Source: an uncultured Chloroflexia bacterium (lineage in GTDB: Bacteria > Chloroflexota > Limnocylindria > Limnocylindrales > CSP1-4). From it: DNA of 64,000 bases. The stretch's first letter is position 1. Each line of letters opens with the position of its first letter. Both the position numbers and the translations under genes were made by a program. The stretch covers positions 1-64,000 of the forward strand of contig CAVVNQ010000008.1 in assembly GCA_963749705.1 (NCBI GenBank). The letters are read 5' to 3'. Shown piece by piece: positions 26,198-29,437 of the stretch. The notes under the pieces were generated by a model that had not been told where the DNA came from, made no database searches, and worked only from the letters and a program-made list of their open reading frames with translations.

Positions 26198-26261
26198 AGC
26201 GCGACGATCAGGCGCCGGTGGGCACCGGTGGAGCGCGACGCTCAGGCGCCGGTCGGCACCG
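26198..26261. repeat. Tandem duplication of about 30 bp covering the tadA 3' end
   Basis: agcgcgacgatcaggcgccggtgggcaccg versus agcgcgacgctcaggcgccggtcggcaccg. Confidence 0.75.
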
Positions 26262-26694
26262 CATCGAGCACGCCGGTGAGCTCTTCGGCCTCCGCGCGCC
26301 GGATCCCCGACACGACCTGGAGGCGGCGCTCCAGCCGCGGGTGCTGGGCAAGGTGGACGACGGTGCCCGCTGCGCCATCGATCGGGTTCGGCACCGCGTA
26401 CACGAGCGCCACGGCATCGCATTCGAGCATCGCCCCGACGCACATCGCACACGGCTCGACCGTGGTGAAGATGGTCACGTCCGCGAGGTGGGGCGTGCCG
26501 AGCTTGCGGGCCGCCTCGCGGAGCGCCGCGATGACGGCGTGGGCGGTCGGATCATTCGTCTCATCCACGCGGTTCGAGCCCCGAGCGACCATCGCCTGGT
26601 CGACCACGGCGATCGCCCCGACGGCCGGCGCTCCACGCGCGGCCGCCTGTCGCGCCTCCGCGAGCGCCTCACCCATGAACAGCTCGTAGTTCAT
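26242..26694 (-). CDS. tadA: TadA-family tRNA adenosine deaminase homolog lacking the catalytic Glu
   Basis: DPTAHAV (canonical HAE), EPCAMC and GAAG motifs; TATGAT 7 nt before the ATG. Confidence 0.88.
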   Translation of the reverse strand: MNYELFMGEALAEARQAAARGAPAVGAIAVVDQAMVARGSNRVDETNDPTAHAVIAALREAARKLGTPHLADVTIFTTVEPCAMCVGAMLECDAVALVYAVPNPIDGAAGTVVHLAQHPRLERRLQVVSGIRRAEAEELTGVLDAVPTGA

Positions 26695-26837
26695 GCCGAC
26701 GATCATAACGACCGGCACCCGCGGTAGGATGGCCCCGACCCGTACGGCGTCCCCGGCGAGCCACGTGCGATCCACTGGCCAGCGCCGCCCGACCCGATCC
26801 AAACGGCCCCGGCCGACGACCCAACGGAGCCTTGCTC

Positions 26838-28028
26838 ATGGCTGCACCCCGACGTATCGGCATCCTCACCGGTGGCGGCGATGTCCCCGGACTCAACGCC
26901 GTCATCAAGAGCGTCGTCTATCGCGCGACAGACCTGGGCTACGAGGTGATCGGAATCCGCCGGGGCTGGGAGGGCCTGACCCACCAGCGTCGCGGTCCCG
27001 AGCTCGATCCCGAGTACGTCAGGGTCCTCGACCGGACCAACACGCGGGCGATCGATCGCACCGGGGGGACGATCCTCCACAGCTCGCGCACGAACCCGCG
27101 CAAGATGCCCGCCGCGTCGCTGCCGGAGTGGCTCGACGTCTCGACCATCGCGGACAAGCGGACCGGCGACGGGGTGTACGACCTGACCGACCACGTGCTG
27201 GAGACCGCCGGGCACCTCGGGCTGACGCACCTGGTCGCCATCGGTGGCGACGACACGCTGTCGTTCGCGGCCGTCCTCGACAGCCGCGGCTTCCCGGTGG
27301 TGGCGATCCCCAAGACGATGGACAACGACGTCCAGGGGACCGAGTACTGCATCGGCTTCTCGTCCGCGATCACGCGCGCGAAGGAGCTGATCAACCGCCA
27401 GCGAACGACGCTGGGCAGCCACGAACGGATCGGCGTGTTCCGGATCTTCGGGCGAGACGCCGGGTTCACCGCGCTGTACACGGCCTACGTGACCTCGACC
27501 CGGTGCGTGATCCCGGAGTTCCCGTACGACCTGGACGCGCTGGCCGAGCTGCTCCGGCAGGACCACGACAACAACCCCAGCCGCTACGCGATGGTGATCA
27601 CGGCCGAAGGTGCGATCTGGAACGGCGCCCAGCTGGGCGACGTGGGCGATGCGGACGCGTTCGGGCACCGCCACAAGGTGAACGTCGGCGAGGCGCTGGC
27701 CAGCGAGCTCAAGGCACGCACGGGCGTCGAGGCGGTCGCGTCGGAGCTGACCTACGACCTGCGGTCGGGTGAGCCCGACATGCTCAATTCGATGGTCGCG
27801 TCAACGTTCGCCAACGTCGCGATGGACCTCATCCGTGACGGGATCAGCGGCCGGATGGTGGGGATCCACGATGGCAAGTACGCCCACGTGCCGCTGGCCG
27901 AGACGGCCAAGCCCCCACGGCGCGTCCAGCTCGAGGCGTACGACACGGAGCGCTTCCGCCCCAAGTACTCGGATCGCCTGGGCGACCCGCTGCTGCTGAC
28001 GCCGTCGCTGGGGCCCGTGACCGGCTGA
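26838..28028 (+). CDS. pfkA: 6-phosphofructokinase, PPi-type signature
   Basis: TGGGDVPGLN, IGGDDT, PKTMDND and FGR motifs. Confidence 0.93.
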   Translation: MAAPRRIGILTGGGDVPGLNAVIKSVVYRATDLGYEVIGIRRGWEGLTHQRRGPELDPEYVRVLDRTNTRAIDRTGGTILHSSRTNPRKMPAASLPEWLDVSTIADKRTGDGVYDLTDHVLETAGHLGLTHLVAIGGDDTLSFAAVLDSRGFPVVAIPKTMDNDVQGTEYCIGFSSAITRAKELINRQRTTLGSHERIGVFRIFGRDAGFTALYTAYVTSTRCVIPEFPYDLDALAELLRQDHDNNPSRYAMVITAEGAIWNGAQLGDVGDADAFGHRHKVNVGEALASELKARTGVEAVASELTYDLRSGEPDMLNSMVASTFANVAMDLIRDGISGRMVGIHDGKYAHVPLAETAKPPRRVQLEAYDTERFRPKYSDRLGDPLLLTPSLGPVTG

Positions 28029-28045
28029 CTCCCCGCGGACCCGGC

Positions 28046-28927
28046 CTACCCGTCGAGGCCGGACAGGGAGCGGATCGCGCGCGCGAGGTTCGACATGTCC
28101 TCGTCGCCGCGTCCGCGCGCCACCAGGCCGGCCTCGAGCTGCGCGGCCAGCGCCGAGACGGGGAGCGAGGCGCCAAGGTTCCGGGCCAGCTCCAGCGCGA
28201 TGGCGAGGTCCTTGAGGTGGAGCGAGGTCCGGAAGCCGAGCGGGTAGGCGTTGTCGATCATCCGCCCGCTCCGGTTCTCGAGCACCCAGCTCCGAGCGGC
28301 CCCGCCGTTGAGCGCGCCGGCGACCGCGACCGGGTCGAGACCGGCCTTGAGCGCCAGGACCATGCCCTCCGCGACCCCCAGGTACGCCCCGGCGAGGACG
28401 ACCTGGTTGATCGCCTTGACCGCCTGGCCGCTGCCGGCCGGTCCGAAGTGGGTGATGGTCTTGCCCATCGCGGCCAGGACCGGCTGGGCGCGCTCGACGT
28501 CGGCCGGCTCCCCACCCACGAAGATCGTCAGGGTCGCGTGCTTCGCACCCTCGGAGCCGCCGGAGACGGGCGCATCGACGAAGCCGACGCCCTGTCCTGC
28601 GAGCCGCGCGGCGAACTCCTTCGTTGCCGACGGCGAGATCGTGGAGCAGTCGATGACCATGCCGCCGCGCGCGAGGCCCGAGGCGACGCCGTCCGCGCCG
28701 AACAGTACGGCATCGACGTCCGGAGTATCGGAGACGCAGGTGACGACGATGTCGGCGGCGCGCCCGACATCGGCAGGCGTCGATGCCTCGACCGCACCCT
28801 GCGCGAGGAGATCGGTCACCCGACCCGGGGTCCGGTTCCACACCGTCACCTCGAACCCCGCCCGACGGAGGTTCGCGGCCATCGCCGCCCCCATCGTGCC
28901 CAGACCCACGAACCCGACTCGTTCCAC
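28046..28927 (-). CDS. 3-hydroxyisobutyrate/2-hydroxy-3-oxopropionate reductase family dehydrogenase
   Basis: GLGTMG, DAPVSGG, K..NQ and KDL motifs. Confidence 0.93.
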   Translation of the reverse strand: MERVGFVGLGTMGAAMAANLRRAGFEVTVWNRTPGRVTDLLAQGAVEASTPADVGRAADIVVTCVSDTPDVDAVLFGADGVASGLARGGMVIDCSTISPSATKEFAARLAGQGVGFVDAPVSGGSEGAKHATLTIFVGGEPADVERAQPVLAAMGKTITHFGPAGSGQAVKAINQVVLAGAYLGVAEGMVLALKAGLDPVAVAGALNGGAARSWVLENRSGRMIDNAYPLGFRTSLHLKDLAIALELARNLGASLPVSALAAQLEAGLVARGRGDEDMSNLARAIRSLSGLDG

Positions 28928-29029
28928 GGCGTCAACCTCCTGCGTTCGATCGAGGGTACCGGGGCGAGCGGTCGAGTGTGACCAGGCGCCGCCAGCGGTG
29001 CAGGCAGGGCCGGGGACGCGGGCGCGACG

Positions 29030-29350
29030 ATGATGCAGACTGACGCTGCCATGAACGGCAGGCCGCGCGATCAGATCAGCACCGACATCAAGGACGGACG
29101 ACCCACGATCTCGCCGGCCGGCGACTTCCTCGCCCTCCGCGTCGTCGCCCTGCTCTCGTGGCGCGAGGCCGACAAGCTGTTCGAGAACCTCGAGCGACGG
29201 ATCAGGCGATCACCGTCGTATGTGGAGTGGGCGGGCGCACCGACGGATTACCTGTCCGAGCTCGATCCGCGAACGGCCAGCTCCATCGAGACCGCGCTCG
29301 GCGCGCTGCATCGCCGGATGGTTCGACGCGCGAAGGCTCGCGGCTGGTAA
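29030..29350 (+). CDS. Hypothetical protein (start may be 29051)
   Basis: Protein-like composition with high GC3; fills the intergenic gap. Confidence 0.55.
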   Translation: MMQTDAAMNGRPRDQISTDIKDGRPTISPAGDFLALRVVALLSWREADKLFENLERRIRRSPSYVEWAGAPTDYLSELDPRTASSIETALGALHRRMVRRAKARGW

Positions 29351-29361
29351 CAGGGAGCGAG

Positions 29362-29437
29362 TGGCGCGCCCGGCGGGACTCGAACCCACGGCCTTCAGGT
29401 CCGCAACCTGACGCTCTATCCGCTGAGCTACGGGCGC
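29362..29437 (-). tRNA. tRNA-Arg(GCG)
   Basis: Anticodon arm TCAGG-TTGCGGA-CCTGA; D-loop CGGATA with the Arg-type A20; GCCA end. Confidence 0.93.

Follow-up and report, generated by a model that had tools for sequence, protein, structure and literature searches.

The window (the whole stretch of DNA analysed, 64,000 nucleotides) comes from a soil, free-living lineage of class Limnocylindria, phylum Chloroflexota, and encodes a homologue of the tRNA adenosine deaminase TadA in which the catalytic Glu of the H-A-E motif is replaced by Val (hereafter the HAV protein). The protein was conserved in two families of the class, and the tRNA set of the source genome held no substrate for a tRNA adenosine deaminase. 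The HAV protein is probably a selected pseudo-enzyme derived from TadA, one that acts by binding and not by catalysis and that has converged on eukaryotic ADAT3 without having a catalytic partner.

The coding sequence of the putative pseudo-deaminase occupied positions 26245–26694 of the minus strand (150 aa; ATG at 26694, stop codon at 26242–26244, from the list of open reading frames). All neighbouring features were on the same strand: tRNA-Ser(GCU) (30409–30500), tRNA-Arg(GCG) (29362–29437), the TadA-like gene, tRNA-Ser(CGA) (26004–26089), tRNA-Ser(GGA) (25795–25882) and, as genomic context only, the SRP RNA gene ffs (25449–25712) and dnaX (23747–25456). This is the order given in the preliminary description. 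The placement of tRNA-Ser(CGA) directly downstream of the TadA-like gene was kept in relatives, tRNA-Ser(GGA) was next in the conserved cluster, and tRNA-Ser(GCU) was a conserved upstream neighbour that adjoined tRNA-Arg(GCG) in 30 of 30 loci (L114–L143). In one Limnocylindria locus (L034) Ser(GCU), Arg(GCG), the HAV gene, Ser(CGA) and Ser(GGA) all lay inside 1.3 kb. The cluster had also been said to recall loci in which the Arg tRNA is ACG, and such a locus was found in a Clostridia MAG with the order Ser(GCU)-Arg(ACG)-Arg(CCU)-tadA(HAE)-Ser(CGA)-Ser(GGA). Lying directly upstream of the tRNA-Ser(CGA)-Ser(GGA) pair, as bacterial tadA does, the gene at 26245–26694 is the positional orthologue of tadA.

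The −10 box noted earlier corresponds to TATGAT at 26702–26707 on the minus strand, 8–13 nt 5′ of the ATG; a generic two-hexamer scan found no promoter for this gene. A TANNNT box starting 9–16 nt 5′ of the start codon was present in 48 of 57 orthologues. Because the spacing of TATGAT leaves no room for a Shine-Dalgarno sequence, the sequence suggests a leaderless or near-leaderless mRNA. No co-directional operon partner of the HAV gene was conserved across the loci compared, so the neighbourhood gives no lead to the function of the protein; the sole recurrent neighbour was a divergently transcribed pfk-like gene (21 of 33 loci).

ARAGORN and Rfam both placed a tRNA at 29362–29437, and its anticodon loop (U32 U33 G34 C35 G36 G37 A38, with G34 at position 29404) identified it as tRNA-Arg(GCG), which has an encoded CCA and the G37 reported previously. 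The source genome, a draft of 22 contigs that is 88% complete, contained 53 tRNAs. The Arg set comprised CCU, CCG, UCU, GCG and UCG, and neither Arg-ACG nor any other A34 tRNA was found among the 53, in agreement with the prediction that Arg-ACG would be absent and Arg-UCG present. The CGN box would thus be read by three unedited tRNAs (G34 for CGU and CGC, U34 for CGA and possibly CGG, C34 for CGG), and wobble inosine would not be needed since there is no A34 tRNA. Within the Limnocylindria order, TilS was absent and tRNA-Ile(UAU) was present.

The preliminary description had put forward inosine-free Arg decoding together with the dead TadA. A sequence pattern for tRNA-Arg, which would miss divergent tRNAs, found GCG in 261 of the 401 Chloroflexota genomes sampled; it found ACG in six of 236. 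TadA was found in none of five complete genomes from other Chloroflexota families. Across the phylum it is usual to have the GCG tRNA and neither ACG nor TadA; this mode of decoding is ordinary here, and the retained dead TadA is the only unusual part. The same decoding, with tRNA-Arg(GCG) plus UCG and no A34 or I34, characterizes the Pneumoniae group of Mollicutes, Thermotogae and Spirochaetes: GCG in place of ACG is described for Thermotogae and Spirochaetes in a passage of PMC8007984 that covers the tRNA only, and for some Mollicutes in PMC3711424, where the Pneumoniae group is described as having lost tadA, gained UCG and changed ACG to GCG. Unlike those sets, the Limnocylindria set also includes tRNA-Arg(CCG). 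In the Mollicutes model of PMC3711424 tadA is lost outright, whereas two Limnocylindria families (f1 and f4) keep a dead, conserved copy.

The TadA-like protein carried H52, A53, V54, E80, C82 and C85, with the PCxxC motif intact (H52 codon at 26539–26541; V54 codon GTC at 26533–26535; both minus strand), confirming the earlier reading of HAV with His and PCxxC zinc ligands in an open frame. It matched Pfam PF00383 at 74 bits. Its score against the NCBIfam TadA equivalog model NF008113 was 103 bits, under the 150-bit cut-off, compared with 141–146 bits for HAE TadAs of families f3 and f5 and 157–175 bits for other Chloroflexota TadAs. The search for another HAE tadA in the genome found none: a single gene passed the PF00383 search, leaving no second CDA-fold gene, and the TadA model matched only the TadA-like gene apart from one 13-bit match. 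Among 57 distinct orthologous coding sequences the Glu site was Val in 55, Leu in one, Ile in one and Glu in none. The Val codons were GTC (29), GTG (24) and GTT (2); Glu was thus still absent although 24 of the 57 sequences carried GTG, one step from GAG. The zinc ligands were retained almost throughout (H52 in 56 of 57; C82 and C85 in 57 of 57), and E80 and the DPTAH loop were conserved throughout the HAV clade.

The GCG anticodon or the Val codon might stem from an error of sequencing, assembly or binning, or a real tadA and Arg-ACG might lie in the 12% of the genome missing from the draft. The same states were seen in independent assemblies such as G125 (one contig), G077 (two contigs) and G043 (four contigs). 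Because both GCG and HAV recur in dozens of independent genomes, they are not an accident of assembly or sequencing, and the probability of an artefact is negligible.

The loss went beyond the Glu. Positions conserved in at least 85% of 44 HAE TadAs were compared with the HAV clade, using the numbering of the window protein. In the HAV clade D3 was changed to Y, E54 to V, R93 to D, G100/A101 to A/V and N122/H123 to G/R; N41 and K105 were variable, and L140, F143, F144 and R148 of the C-terminal FF..RR helix were variable or absent. These canonical-invariant residues, including the L..FF..RR helix, are presumably tRNA contacts. The HAV clade also had a conserved surface of its own, including an N-terminal MNYELFMGEALAEA helix, clade-specific conserved acidic residues in helix 1 (E4, E9 and E13) and a conserved start at MNYELF. 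The earlier proposal of a surviving zinc-binding pseudo-enzyme stands as regards the zinc ligands and selection, and needs to be widened as regards what was lost.

The AlphaFold model of the protein had a pLDDT of 93.7. In the model the C-terminal helix, short and acidic (EAEEL), spanned residues 133–140 only, followed by a low-confidence tail. The closest PDB folds were bacterial TadAs (E. coli 1Z3A, S. aureus 2B3J and B. subtilis 7CPH; TMq 0.89–0.93, 32–36% identity), then ADAT2, then ADAT3 (TMq 0.85). The HAV protein shares with bacterial TadA the zinc ligands, the EPCxMC motif and a predicted dimer interface; unlike bacterial TadA, it has lost the Glu and about a dozen canonical-invariant residues, and its genome has no tRNA-Arg(ACG) substrate. 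Retention of a dimer interface like that of TadA is predicted, although the prediction may owe something to solved TadA dimers already known to the model, and the HAV protein is probably homodimeric.

With the canonical-invariant residues and the C-terminal FF..RR helix gone, binding of the tRNA anticodon loop in the manner of TadA is likely to have been lost. This bears on an alternative in which the HAV protein would still bind tRNA without catalysis, serving as a chaperone, protector or specificity factor on, for example, the anticodon stem-loop of tRNA-Arg(GCG), as ADAT3 aids ADAT2. Descent from a tRNA-binding enzyme, the location of the gene inside a tRNA gene cluster and the predicted dimer interface are all in keeping with such a factor. 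The changes at R93, K105, N122, H123 and L140/F143/F144/R148 argue against it, as does the short, acidic C-terminal helix, since changes of that type are the ones to which passages of PMC8216470 ascribe the loss of anticodon-loop binding in ADAT3; moreover, the genome has no catalytic partner for it to assist. A tRNA-binding role of this kind is therefore unlikely.

ADAT3 (Tad3), the inactive subunit of the eukaryotic ADAT2/ADAT3 wobble deaminase, is a close known parallel to the preferred reading, that of a pseudo-enzyme acting by binding. Passages of PMC8216470 and PMC3239186 describe for ADAT3 a Val in place of the Glu, a retained zinc triad, a C-terminal helix that has become shorter, the loss of determinants for recognizing the anticodon loop, and a surface that is negative; the HAV protein shares these features. 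ADAT3 was also matched by sequence (7nz7_B, E 3e-12). The likeness is convergent because the tree places the HAV clade with bacterial TadAs. ADAT3 differs in having an extra N-terminal (ferredoxin-like) domain, whereas the HAV protein consists of one domain of 150 aa. ADAT3 also works solely in partnership with catalytic ADAT2, whereas the HAV genome has no active partner resembling TadA or ADAT2.

The zinc site might instead still serve catalysis, acting on a free base or nucleoside, on another RNA position or on DNA with a different proton shuttle. The near-invariance of H52, C82, C85, E80 and the DPTAH loop would fit an enzyme that still binds a nucleobase; selection as strong as that on real TadA (below) and the new acidic residues of helix 1 point the same way. 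Against an enzyme stand the invariably aliphatic replacement of the Glu in the 57 sequences and, in the passages of PMC8216470 concerned, three observations: the HxE Glu is the essential proton shuttle of the deaminase family, ADAT2-E73A has hardly any activity left, and ADAT3 is inactive although it retains its zinc triad. Continued catalysis is accordingly improbable. With its proton-shuttling Glu replaced by Val and its substrate tRNA absent, the gene product would no longer be a tRNA adenosine deaminase, and we infer from these residues that catalysis was lost.

The orthologues of both families are under purifying selection, and the neutral evolution that would have spoken against a functional protein was not seen. 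Pairwise NG86 dN/dS had a median of 0.33 among HAV orthologues (1595 of 1596 pairs usable) and was 0.29 among the 44 canonical TadAs, figures that are rough, with dS close to saturation at the 70% G+C of these genomes. The HAV clade was monophyletic (SH-aLRT 99), and its stem was long, at 0.79 substitutions per site. A second HAV lineage was observed among Rhodothermales-like TadAs.

The class was sampled with 120 genomes plus the source genome, in five families (f1–f5; the source genome belongs to f1). The tRNA pattern found ACG in 0/35 f1, 0/5 f2, 0/40 f4, 32/39 f3 and 0/1 f5 genomes, and GCG in 31/35 f1 genomes plus the source genome, 5/5 f2, 38/40 f4, 3/39 f3 and 0/1 f5 genomes; the tRNA-Arg(GCG) genes behind the f1, f2 and f4 counts were nearly identical to the window gene. 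The Glu site was tallied by reading DPTAHAx motif rows by hand, with a cross-check against the extracted loci. The motif occurred in 30 of 36 f1 genomes, the source genome included (Val 29, Ile 1), and in 38 of 40 f4 genomes (Val 36, Leu 2); Glu was found in 31 of 39 f3 genomes and in the single f5 genome. The Val-type protein thus goes with GCG and HAE with ACG, as the suggested co-occurrence check required, and sister family f3 retains HAE TadA together with ACG. Family f2, a streamlined sister family with genomes of 1.0–1.4 Mb, yielded no match to the motif in five genomes and none in 16 by protein search, and its syntenic interval held no tadA remnant; the orthologue was deleted there. In one f4 MAG (G089) an HAV cluster occurred alongside a canonical HAE TadA, the contigs concerned being two short ones; either the bin is mixed or the two genes are true paralogues. 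Some relatives carried HAE paralogues that were guanine-deaminase-like (1wkq, E 4.9e-47).

The traceless deletion in f2, the lack of a PF00383 match in three of 35 f1 genomes (90–97% complete) and the lack of any TadA in two f3 genomes with GCG mean that the HAV gene is dispensable in some backgrounds. They would also suit a functionless relic of tadA, decaying slowly or kept for DNA signals of the downstream tRNA-Ser and SRP RNA genes. A relic is hard to reconcile with frames intact in 57 of 57 distinct sequences from two families that are only 50–58% identical, with the dN/dS, with synonymous turnover between GTC and GTG at an unchanged Val, or with the kept zinc ligands; selection for DNA signals would not by itself conserve the amino-acid sequence. 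This explanation is very unlikely. A predicted folded protein, kept under purifying selection with its zinc site preserved and with a new conserved surface, points instead to a selected pseudo-enzyme acting by binding, in what we infer to be a new non-catalytic role.

A broader proposal is a serious possibility that stops a little short of likely: once tRNA-Arg has switched from A34 to G34, TadA can be repurposed repeatedly, by the Glu to Val route that ADAT3 took, as a zinc-bound dimer without catalytic activity and with a new role under selection, for example in regulation through binding of RNA or protein. Two independent bacterial instances that lack a catalytic partner would then be Limnocylindria, with its two deeply diverged families, and the Rhodothermales-like lineage.

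In the usual view TadA is essential to bacteria, almost universal among them and confined to one tRNA substrate; adenine base editors are built on its scaffold. Limnocylindria offers a clade-wide natural experiment on the fate of TadA once its substrate is gone: the usual fate is loss, as in most Chloroflexota, and two families have kept a dead, remodelled protein over long evolutionary time. The ADAT3-like remodelling makes the origin of a pseudo-deaminase subunit testable in bacteria. JGI labels close HAE relatives "tRNA adenosine deaminase"; HAV genes are likely to receive the same label automatically, which would lead models of metabolism or translation to infer inosine in error. Taken with the exchange of TilS for tRNA-Ile(UAU) in the same order, the finding would make Limnocylindria a free-living lineage minus two "essential" wobble-modification enzymes.

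A tRNA-Arg(GCG) gene was annotated by both ARAGORN and Rfam at 29362-29437 on the minus strand, with its CCA encoded and an anticodon loop of U32 U33 G34 C35 G36 G37 A38. Approximately 2.7 kb away on the same strand, an ORF of 150 aa (26245-26694) encodes a protein with the cytidine/adenosine-deaminase fold and the motifs NDPTAH52-A53-V54IAAL and VE80PC82AMC85VGAM. The V54 codon, at the catalytic Glu site of canonical (HAE) TadA, is GTC (26533-26535, minus strand). The annotations and the translated ORF confirmed the preliminary description of a tRNA-Arg(GCG) carrying G37 beside a TadA homologue that reads DPTAHAVI and keeps PCxxC. 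From Ser(GCU), the genes run through Arg(GCG), two unrelated genes, the TadA-like gene, Ser(CGA), Ser(GGA), and SRP RNA to dnaX. Seven soil-metagenome DNA runs carry parts of 26100-29500 (best share 0.29), and Logan contigs from four runs, with patchy cover, showed no other base at 29404 (G34) or at 26533-26535 (V54) among the matches listed. No RNA runs covering 26100-29500 were listed.

The source genome (22 contigs, 3.6 Mb, 71.5% G+C, 88% complete) contained 53 tRNA genes, and its Arg set consisted of CCU, CCG, UCU, GCG, and UCG. Neither Arg-ACG, the anticodon that needs TadA editing to inosine, nor any other anticodon with a first base A was among the 53 tRNAs of this 88%-complete genome; the absence of Arg-ACG and the presence of Arg-UCG had both been predicted. 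A PF00383 search of the genome found the TadA-like gene alone, and a TadA-model search found the same gene and one 13-bit match, so that within this 88%-complete assembly the expected lack of a second, HAE-type tadA also held. Across 1188 long ORFs, Arg codon use was CGC 42%, CGG 37%, CGA 9%, CGU 7%, AGG 4%, and AGA 1%. The most used codon, CGC, is therefore a Watson-Crick match to the G34 tRNA.

The closest loci carried contig titles of Chloroflexota, class Limnocylindria. In addition to the source genome, 120 genomes of this class were sampled from five families: f1, that of the source genome (35 genomes); f2, of the same order as f1 and with genomes of 1.0-1.4 Mb (5); f3 (39); f4 (40); and f5 (1). 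The tRNA-Arg(ACG) pattern occurred in 32/39 f3 genomes and in none of f1 (0/35), f2 (0/5), f4 (0/40), or f5 (0/1). The tRNA-Arg(GCG) pattern occurred in 31/35 f1 genomes and the source genome, 5/5 f2 genomes, 38/40 f4 genomes, and 3/39 f3 genomes, and was not found in f5 (0/1). The Glu-site residue was taken from DPTAHAx motif matches and checked against fetched loci. The gene was found in 30 of the 36 f1 genomes, source genome included (Val 29, Ile 1), and in 38 of the 40 f4 genomes (Val 36, Leu 2); Glu was found in 31/39 f3 genomes and in the one f5 genome (1/1), and f2 had no DPTAHAx match (0/5). Among the loci from named MAGs (L004-L038) the site was Val in 34/35 and Ile in one, and all 45 matches from outside Limnocylindria read HAE. 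These tallies include unpublished genomes (G102, G126, G139, and G145 in f3; G122 and G131 in f4; G201 and G524 in the phylum sample). Without them ACG was found in 28/35 f3 genomes and GCG in 37/38 f4 genomes, and no claim depends on these genomes alone.

Three states were thus present in the class: ACG with an HAE TadA, GCG without TadA, and GCG with a Val-type TadA. A Val-type TadA together with ACG was never seen among the 120 genomes and the source genome. The proposed co-occurrence of HAV, the Val-type motif, with GCG held across relatives, f1 and f4 having the Val-type gene with GCG and f3 having HAE with ACG. The state without TadA included f2, in which a protein search found no TadA-like gene (0/16) and the syntenic Arg(GCG)-Ser(CGA) interval of one genome (G025) contained no tadA remnant. 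It also included two f3 genomes, G044 (97% complete) and G090 (86%), in which Arg(GCG) lies directly beside Arg(UCG) (G044:C26:58182-58351, locus L162; G090:C21:4126-4284, locus L202) and no ACG and no TadA orthologue were found. Genus-mates of these two genomes have Arg(ACG) beside Arg(UCG) and an HAE TadA, and G044 and G090 appear to be additional, independent cases of the switch in which tadA was lost entirely. In the f3 loci L159 and L164-L185, Arg(ACG) and the neighboring Arg(UCG) share the acceptor stem, D arm, and T arm, a likeness that suggests recent paralogy or concerted evolution. The f3 Arg(ACG) is not next to Ser(GCU), unlike that of Clostridia.

Both exceptions to the pattern of states sit on short contigs of fragmented MAGs. 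The f3 genome G137 had ACG, HAE, and two GCG-pattern matches, one of which sits on a contig of 2.3 kb and shares 99% identity with the f1 type. The f1-type tRNA on so short a contig was taken as probable mis-binning. In the f4 genome G089, contig C56 (5958 nt) carries an HAV gene-Ser(cga)-Ser(gga) cluster and contig C60 (7607 nt) a canonical HAE TadA close to Ser(cga); the ACG and GCG tRNA patterns both gave no match in this genome. The bin may be mixed, or G089 may be a true two-copy intermediate. Apart from the canonical TadA on C60 of this MAG, HAE paralogues were rejected as candidates for an overlooked genuine TadA or for a catalytic partner of the HAV protein, since those fetched were of guanine-deaminase-like or other non-TadA CDA types and lacked the TadA C-terminus. 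In some relatives they resemble guanine deaminase (1wkq, E 4.9e-47). Such paralogues of the B. subtilis GuaD type, ending in RTPY, RVPY, or RIHY, were scattered in some f1, f4, and other Chloroflexota genomes (L103, L104, L106, L108-L110, L146, L151, L193-L195, and L288) and were absent from the source genome. Outside the class, DPTAHAV was matched in 2/355 other Chloroflexota, both chance matches in a 77-aa non-deaminase frame, and a DPTAHAM match in G095 was not within a deaminase ORF.

A phylogenetic tree recovered the HAV clade as a monophyletic group (SH-aLRT 99) whose stem is 0.79 substitutions per site long. The clade falls in an unresolved group together with a Clostridia TadA and the HAE TadA of Limnocylindria. 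The locus order, which had been said to recall loci with Arg ACG, does have such a counterpart: a Clostridia MAG reads Ser(gct)-Arg(acg)-Arg(cct)-tadA(HAE)-Ser(cga)-Ser(gga), and Limnocylindria locus L034 reads Ser(gct)-Arg(gcg)-HAV-Ser(cga)-Ser(gga) within 1.3 kb. The HAE TadA lies within 0.1 kb of Ser(cga)-Ser(gga) in f5 and approximately 1-3.5 kb from it in f3. The HAV gene is clearly the positional orthologue of tadA. An ancestor of the class with ACG and an active TadA is most likely, given that both f3 and f5 retain a functional TadA close to this tRNA-Ser cluster.

Within the phylum, the GCG pattern was found in 261/401 Chloroflexota genomes (215/351 outside the class) and the ACG pattern in 6/236 (6/208 outside the class). 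Five complete single-contig genomes from five other families had GCG, UCG, and CCG and no ACG. A TadA-model search found no TadA in these five: the best matches were of 88, 51, and 44 bits, two genomes had no match, and the 88-bit match was guanine-deaminase-like. Among ACG-pattern Chloroflexota outside the class, 4/5 hold a TadA above the curated cut-off (157-175 bits). In G252, a genome with Ser(UGA)-Ser(GCU)-Arg(GCG)-Arg(GCG) kept, there was no tadA within 7 kb. If the ancestor of Limnocylindria did have ACG and an active TadA, we infer that the switch of f1, f2, and f4 and those in G044 and G090 would have arisen separately from the switches of other Chloroflexota classes. Arg-GCG in place of ACG is described for all sequenced Thermotogae and Spirochaetes in a review (PMC8007984), and Yokobori et al. 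(PMC3711424) describe Mollicutes in which tadA was lost, UCG was gained, and ACG became GCG. Given these precedents and the phylum counts, inosine-free CGN decoding is of a known kind and is the norm in Chloroflexota. Literature searches returned no account of tRNA-Arg(GCG) or of a missing TadA in Chloroflexota, and supplementary tables may list Chloroflexi states. The tRNA-Arg(GCG) is ordinary for the phylum; the unusual part is the retained and remodelled tadA.

The TadA-like protein matched Pfam PF00383 at 74 bits and the NCBIfam TadA equivalog at 103 bits, under its 150-bit cut-off. Its best PDB matches by sequence and by fold were bacterial TadAs (TM 0.89-0.93), and its AlphaFold model had a pLDDT of 93.7. 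The orthologue set comprised 57 distinct CDS from f1 and f4, 50-83% identical to the protein of the window, and all 57 had open frames. Their Glu site was Val in 55 (GTC 29, GTG 24, GTT 2), Leu in one, and Ile in one. GTG is a single step from GAG, yet Glu was found in 0/57. Among the zinc ligands, H52 was kept in 56/57 and C82 and C85 in 57/57. Neutral evolution of the orthologues was not seen, the median pairwise NG86 dN/dS of the HAV clade being 0.33 (1595/1596 pairs usable), near the 0.29 of 44 canonical TadAs, both values being rough because dS is near saturation. Positions conserved in at least 85% of the 44 HAE TadAs and replaced or variable in the HAV clade were D3, N41, E54, R93, G100/A101, K105, N122/H123, L140, F143, F144, and R148. 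New clade-specific invariants included N2, Y3, E4, L5, E9, E13, A34, R38, R42, R63, and T74. The modelled C-terminal helix covers residues 133-140 alone and is acidic (EAEEL); beyond it the tail is variable and modelled with low confidence. A homodimer was predicted with a score of 0.76 against 0.00 for the best control (contact agreement at least 98%, pLDDT at least 89), by a mark that 20/30 solved homo-pairs and 1/23 single chains passed. In this prediction the TadA-type dimer interface appears not obviously destroyed, and the result may reflect the model's memory of solved TadA dimers. An ESM Atlas search returned TadA/CDA clusters alone and gave no functional lead.

Upstream of the TadA-like gene, a TATGAT box (26702-26707, minus strand) lies 8-13 nt 5' of the ATG, and a TANNNT box begins 9-16 nt 5' of the start codon in 48/57 orthologues. 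A generic promoter and terminator scan of 25700-27000 gave no match. In the f1 orthologues a TA(T/G)(G/C)AT box stands 12-13 nt 5' of the ATG and a Shine-Dalgarno site is missing, and from these upstream sequences their mRNA looks leaderless. The f4 orthologues instead carry a GGAGG-like site, with a TAGACT box farther upstream. No conserved operon partner was found among 33 loci; the sole recurrent neighbor was a divergent pfk-like gene (21/33).

The HxE glutamate is described in PMC8216470 as the proton shuttle, and ADAT2-E73A as hardly active. According to the same text, ADAT3 was inactivated by a change in which Val replaced this Glu and the zinc triad stayed intact; it has a shortened C-terminal helix that no longer reaches the anticodon loop, has lost its base-binding pockets, and has a negative surface. 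The Limnocylindria HAV protein has the same set of changes. Unlike ADAT3, it has no N-terminal domain, and no catalytic partner was found in the source genome by the PF00383 and TadA-model searches. The HAV protein is likely to be catalytically dead, zinc-bound, probably dimeric, and kept for a non-catalytic role. Of the proposal that the anticodon switched first and freed TadA to persist as a pseudo-enzyme, the retained gene under selection, with its zinc ligands, was borne out; the anticodon change may have come before or after the loss of Glu. Literature searches, made mostly outside subscription journals and supplements, found no conserved catalytically dead bacterial TadA described.

HAV was also read in six protein clusters within Rhodothermales-like TadAs (P0099, P0151, P0153, P0158, P0162, and P0179), which come from protein libraries without contigs; the other motif-bearing matches, 112 of 120, read HAE. 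The six clusters share 70-80% identity with P0099 and form a monophyletic group (SH-aLRT 98) whose stem is short (0.18); some retain a partial FF/RR C-terminus. A metagenome scan for relatives found matches of at most 59% identity, all HAE (71 motifs). The six represent an independent Glu-to-Val event. A further TadA-like protein without the Glu, P0112 (155 aa, DPTAHPI), was placed on a long branch with weak attachment to the HAV clade of Limnocylindria.

The HAV gene itself is dispensable in streamlined genomes such as those of f2. The lysidine synthetase TilS was found in 0/35 f1 genomes and the source genome and in 0/5 f2 genomes, and was present in f3 (38/39), f4 (39/40), and f5 (1/1). The tRNA-Ile(UAU) pattern was found in 30/35 f1 genomes, the source genome (contig C21:40431-40507, minus strand, outside the window), and 3/5 f2 genomes, and in 0/80 genomes of the rest of the class. 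A precedent for this swap in Mycoplasma mobile appears in the reference list of PMC6063277. TilS is the second "essential" wobble enzyme whose place a tRNA change has taken in the free-living order formed by f1 and f2.
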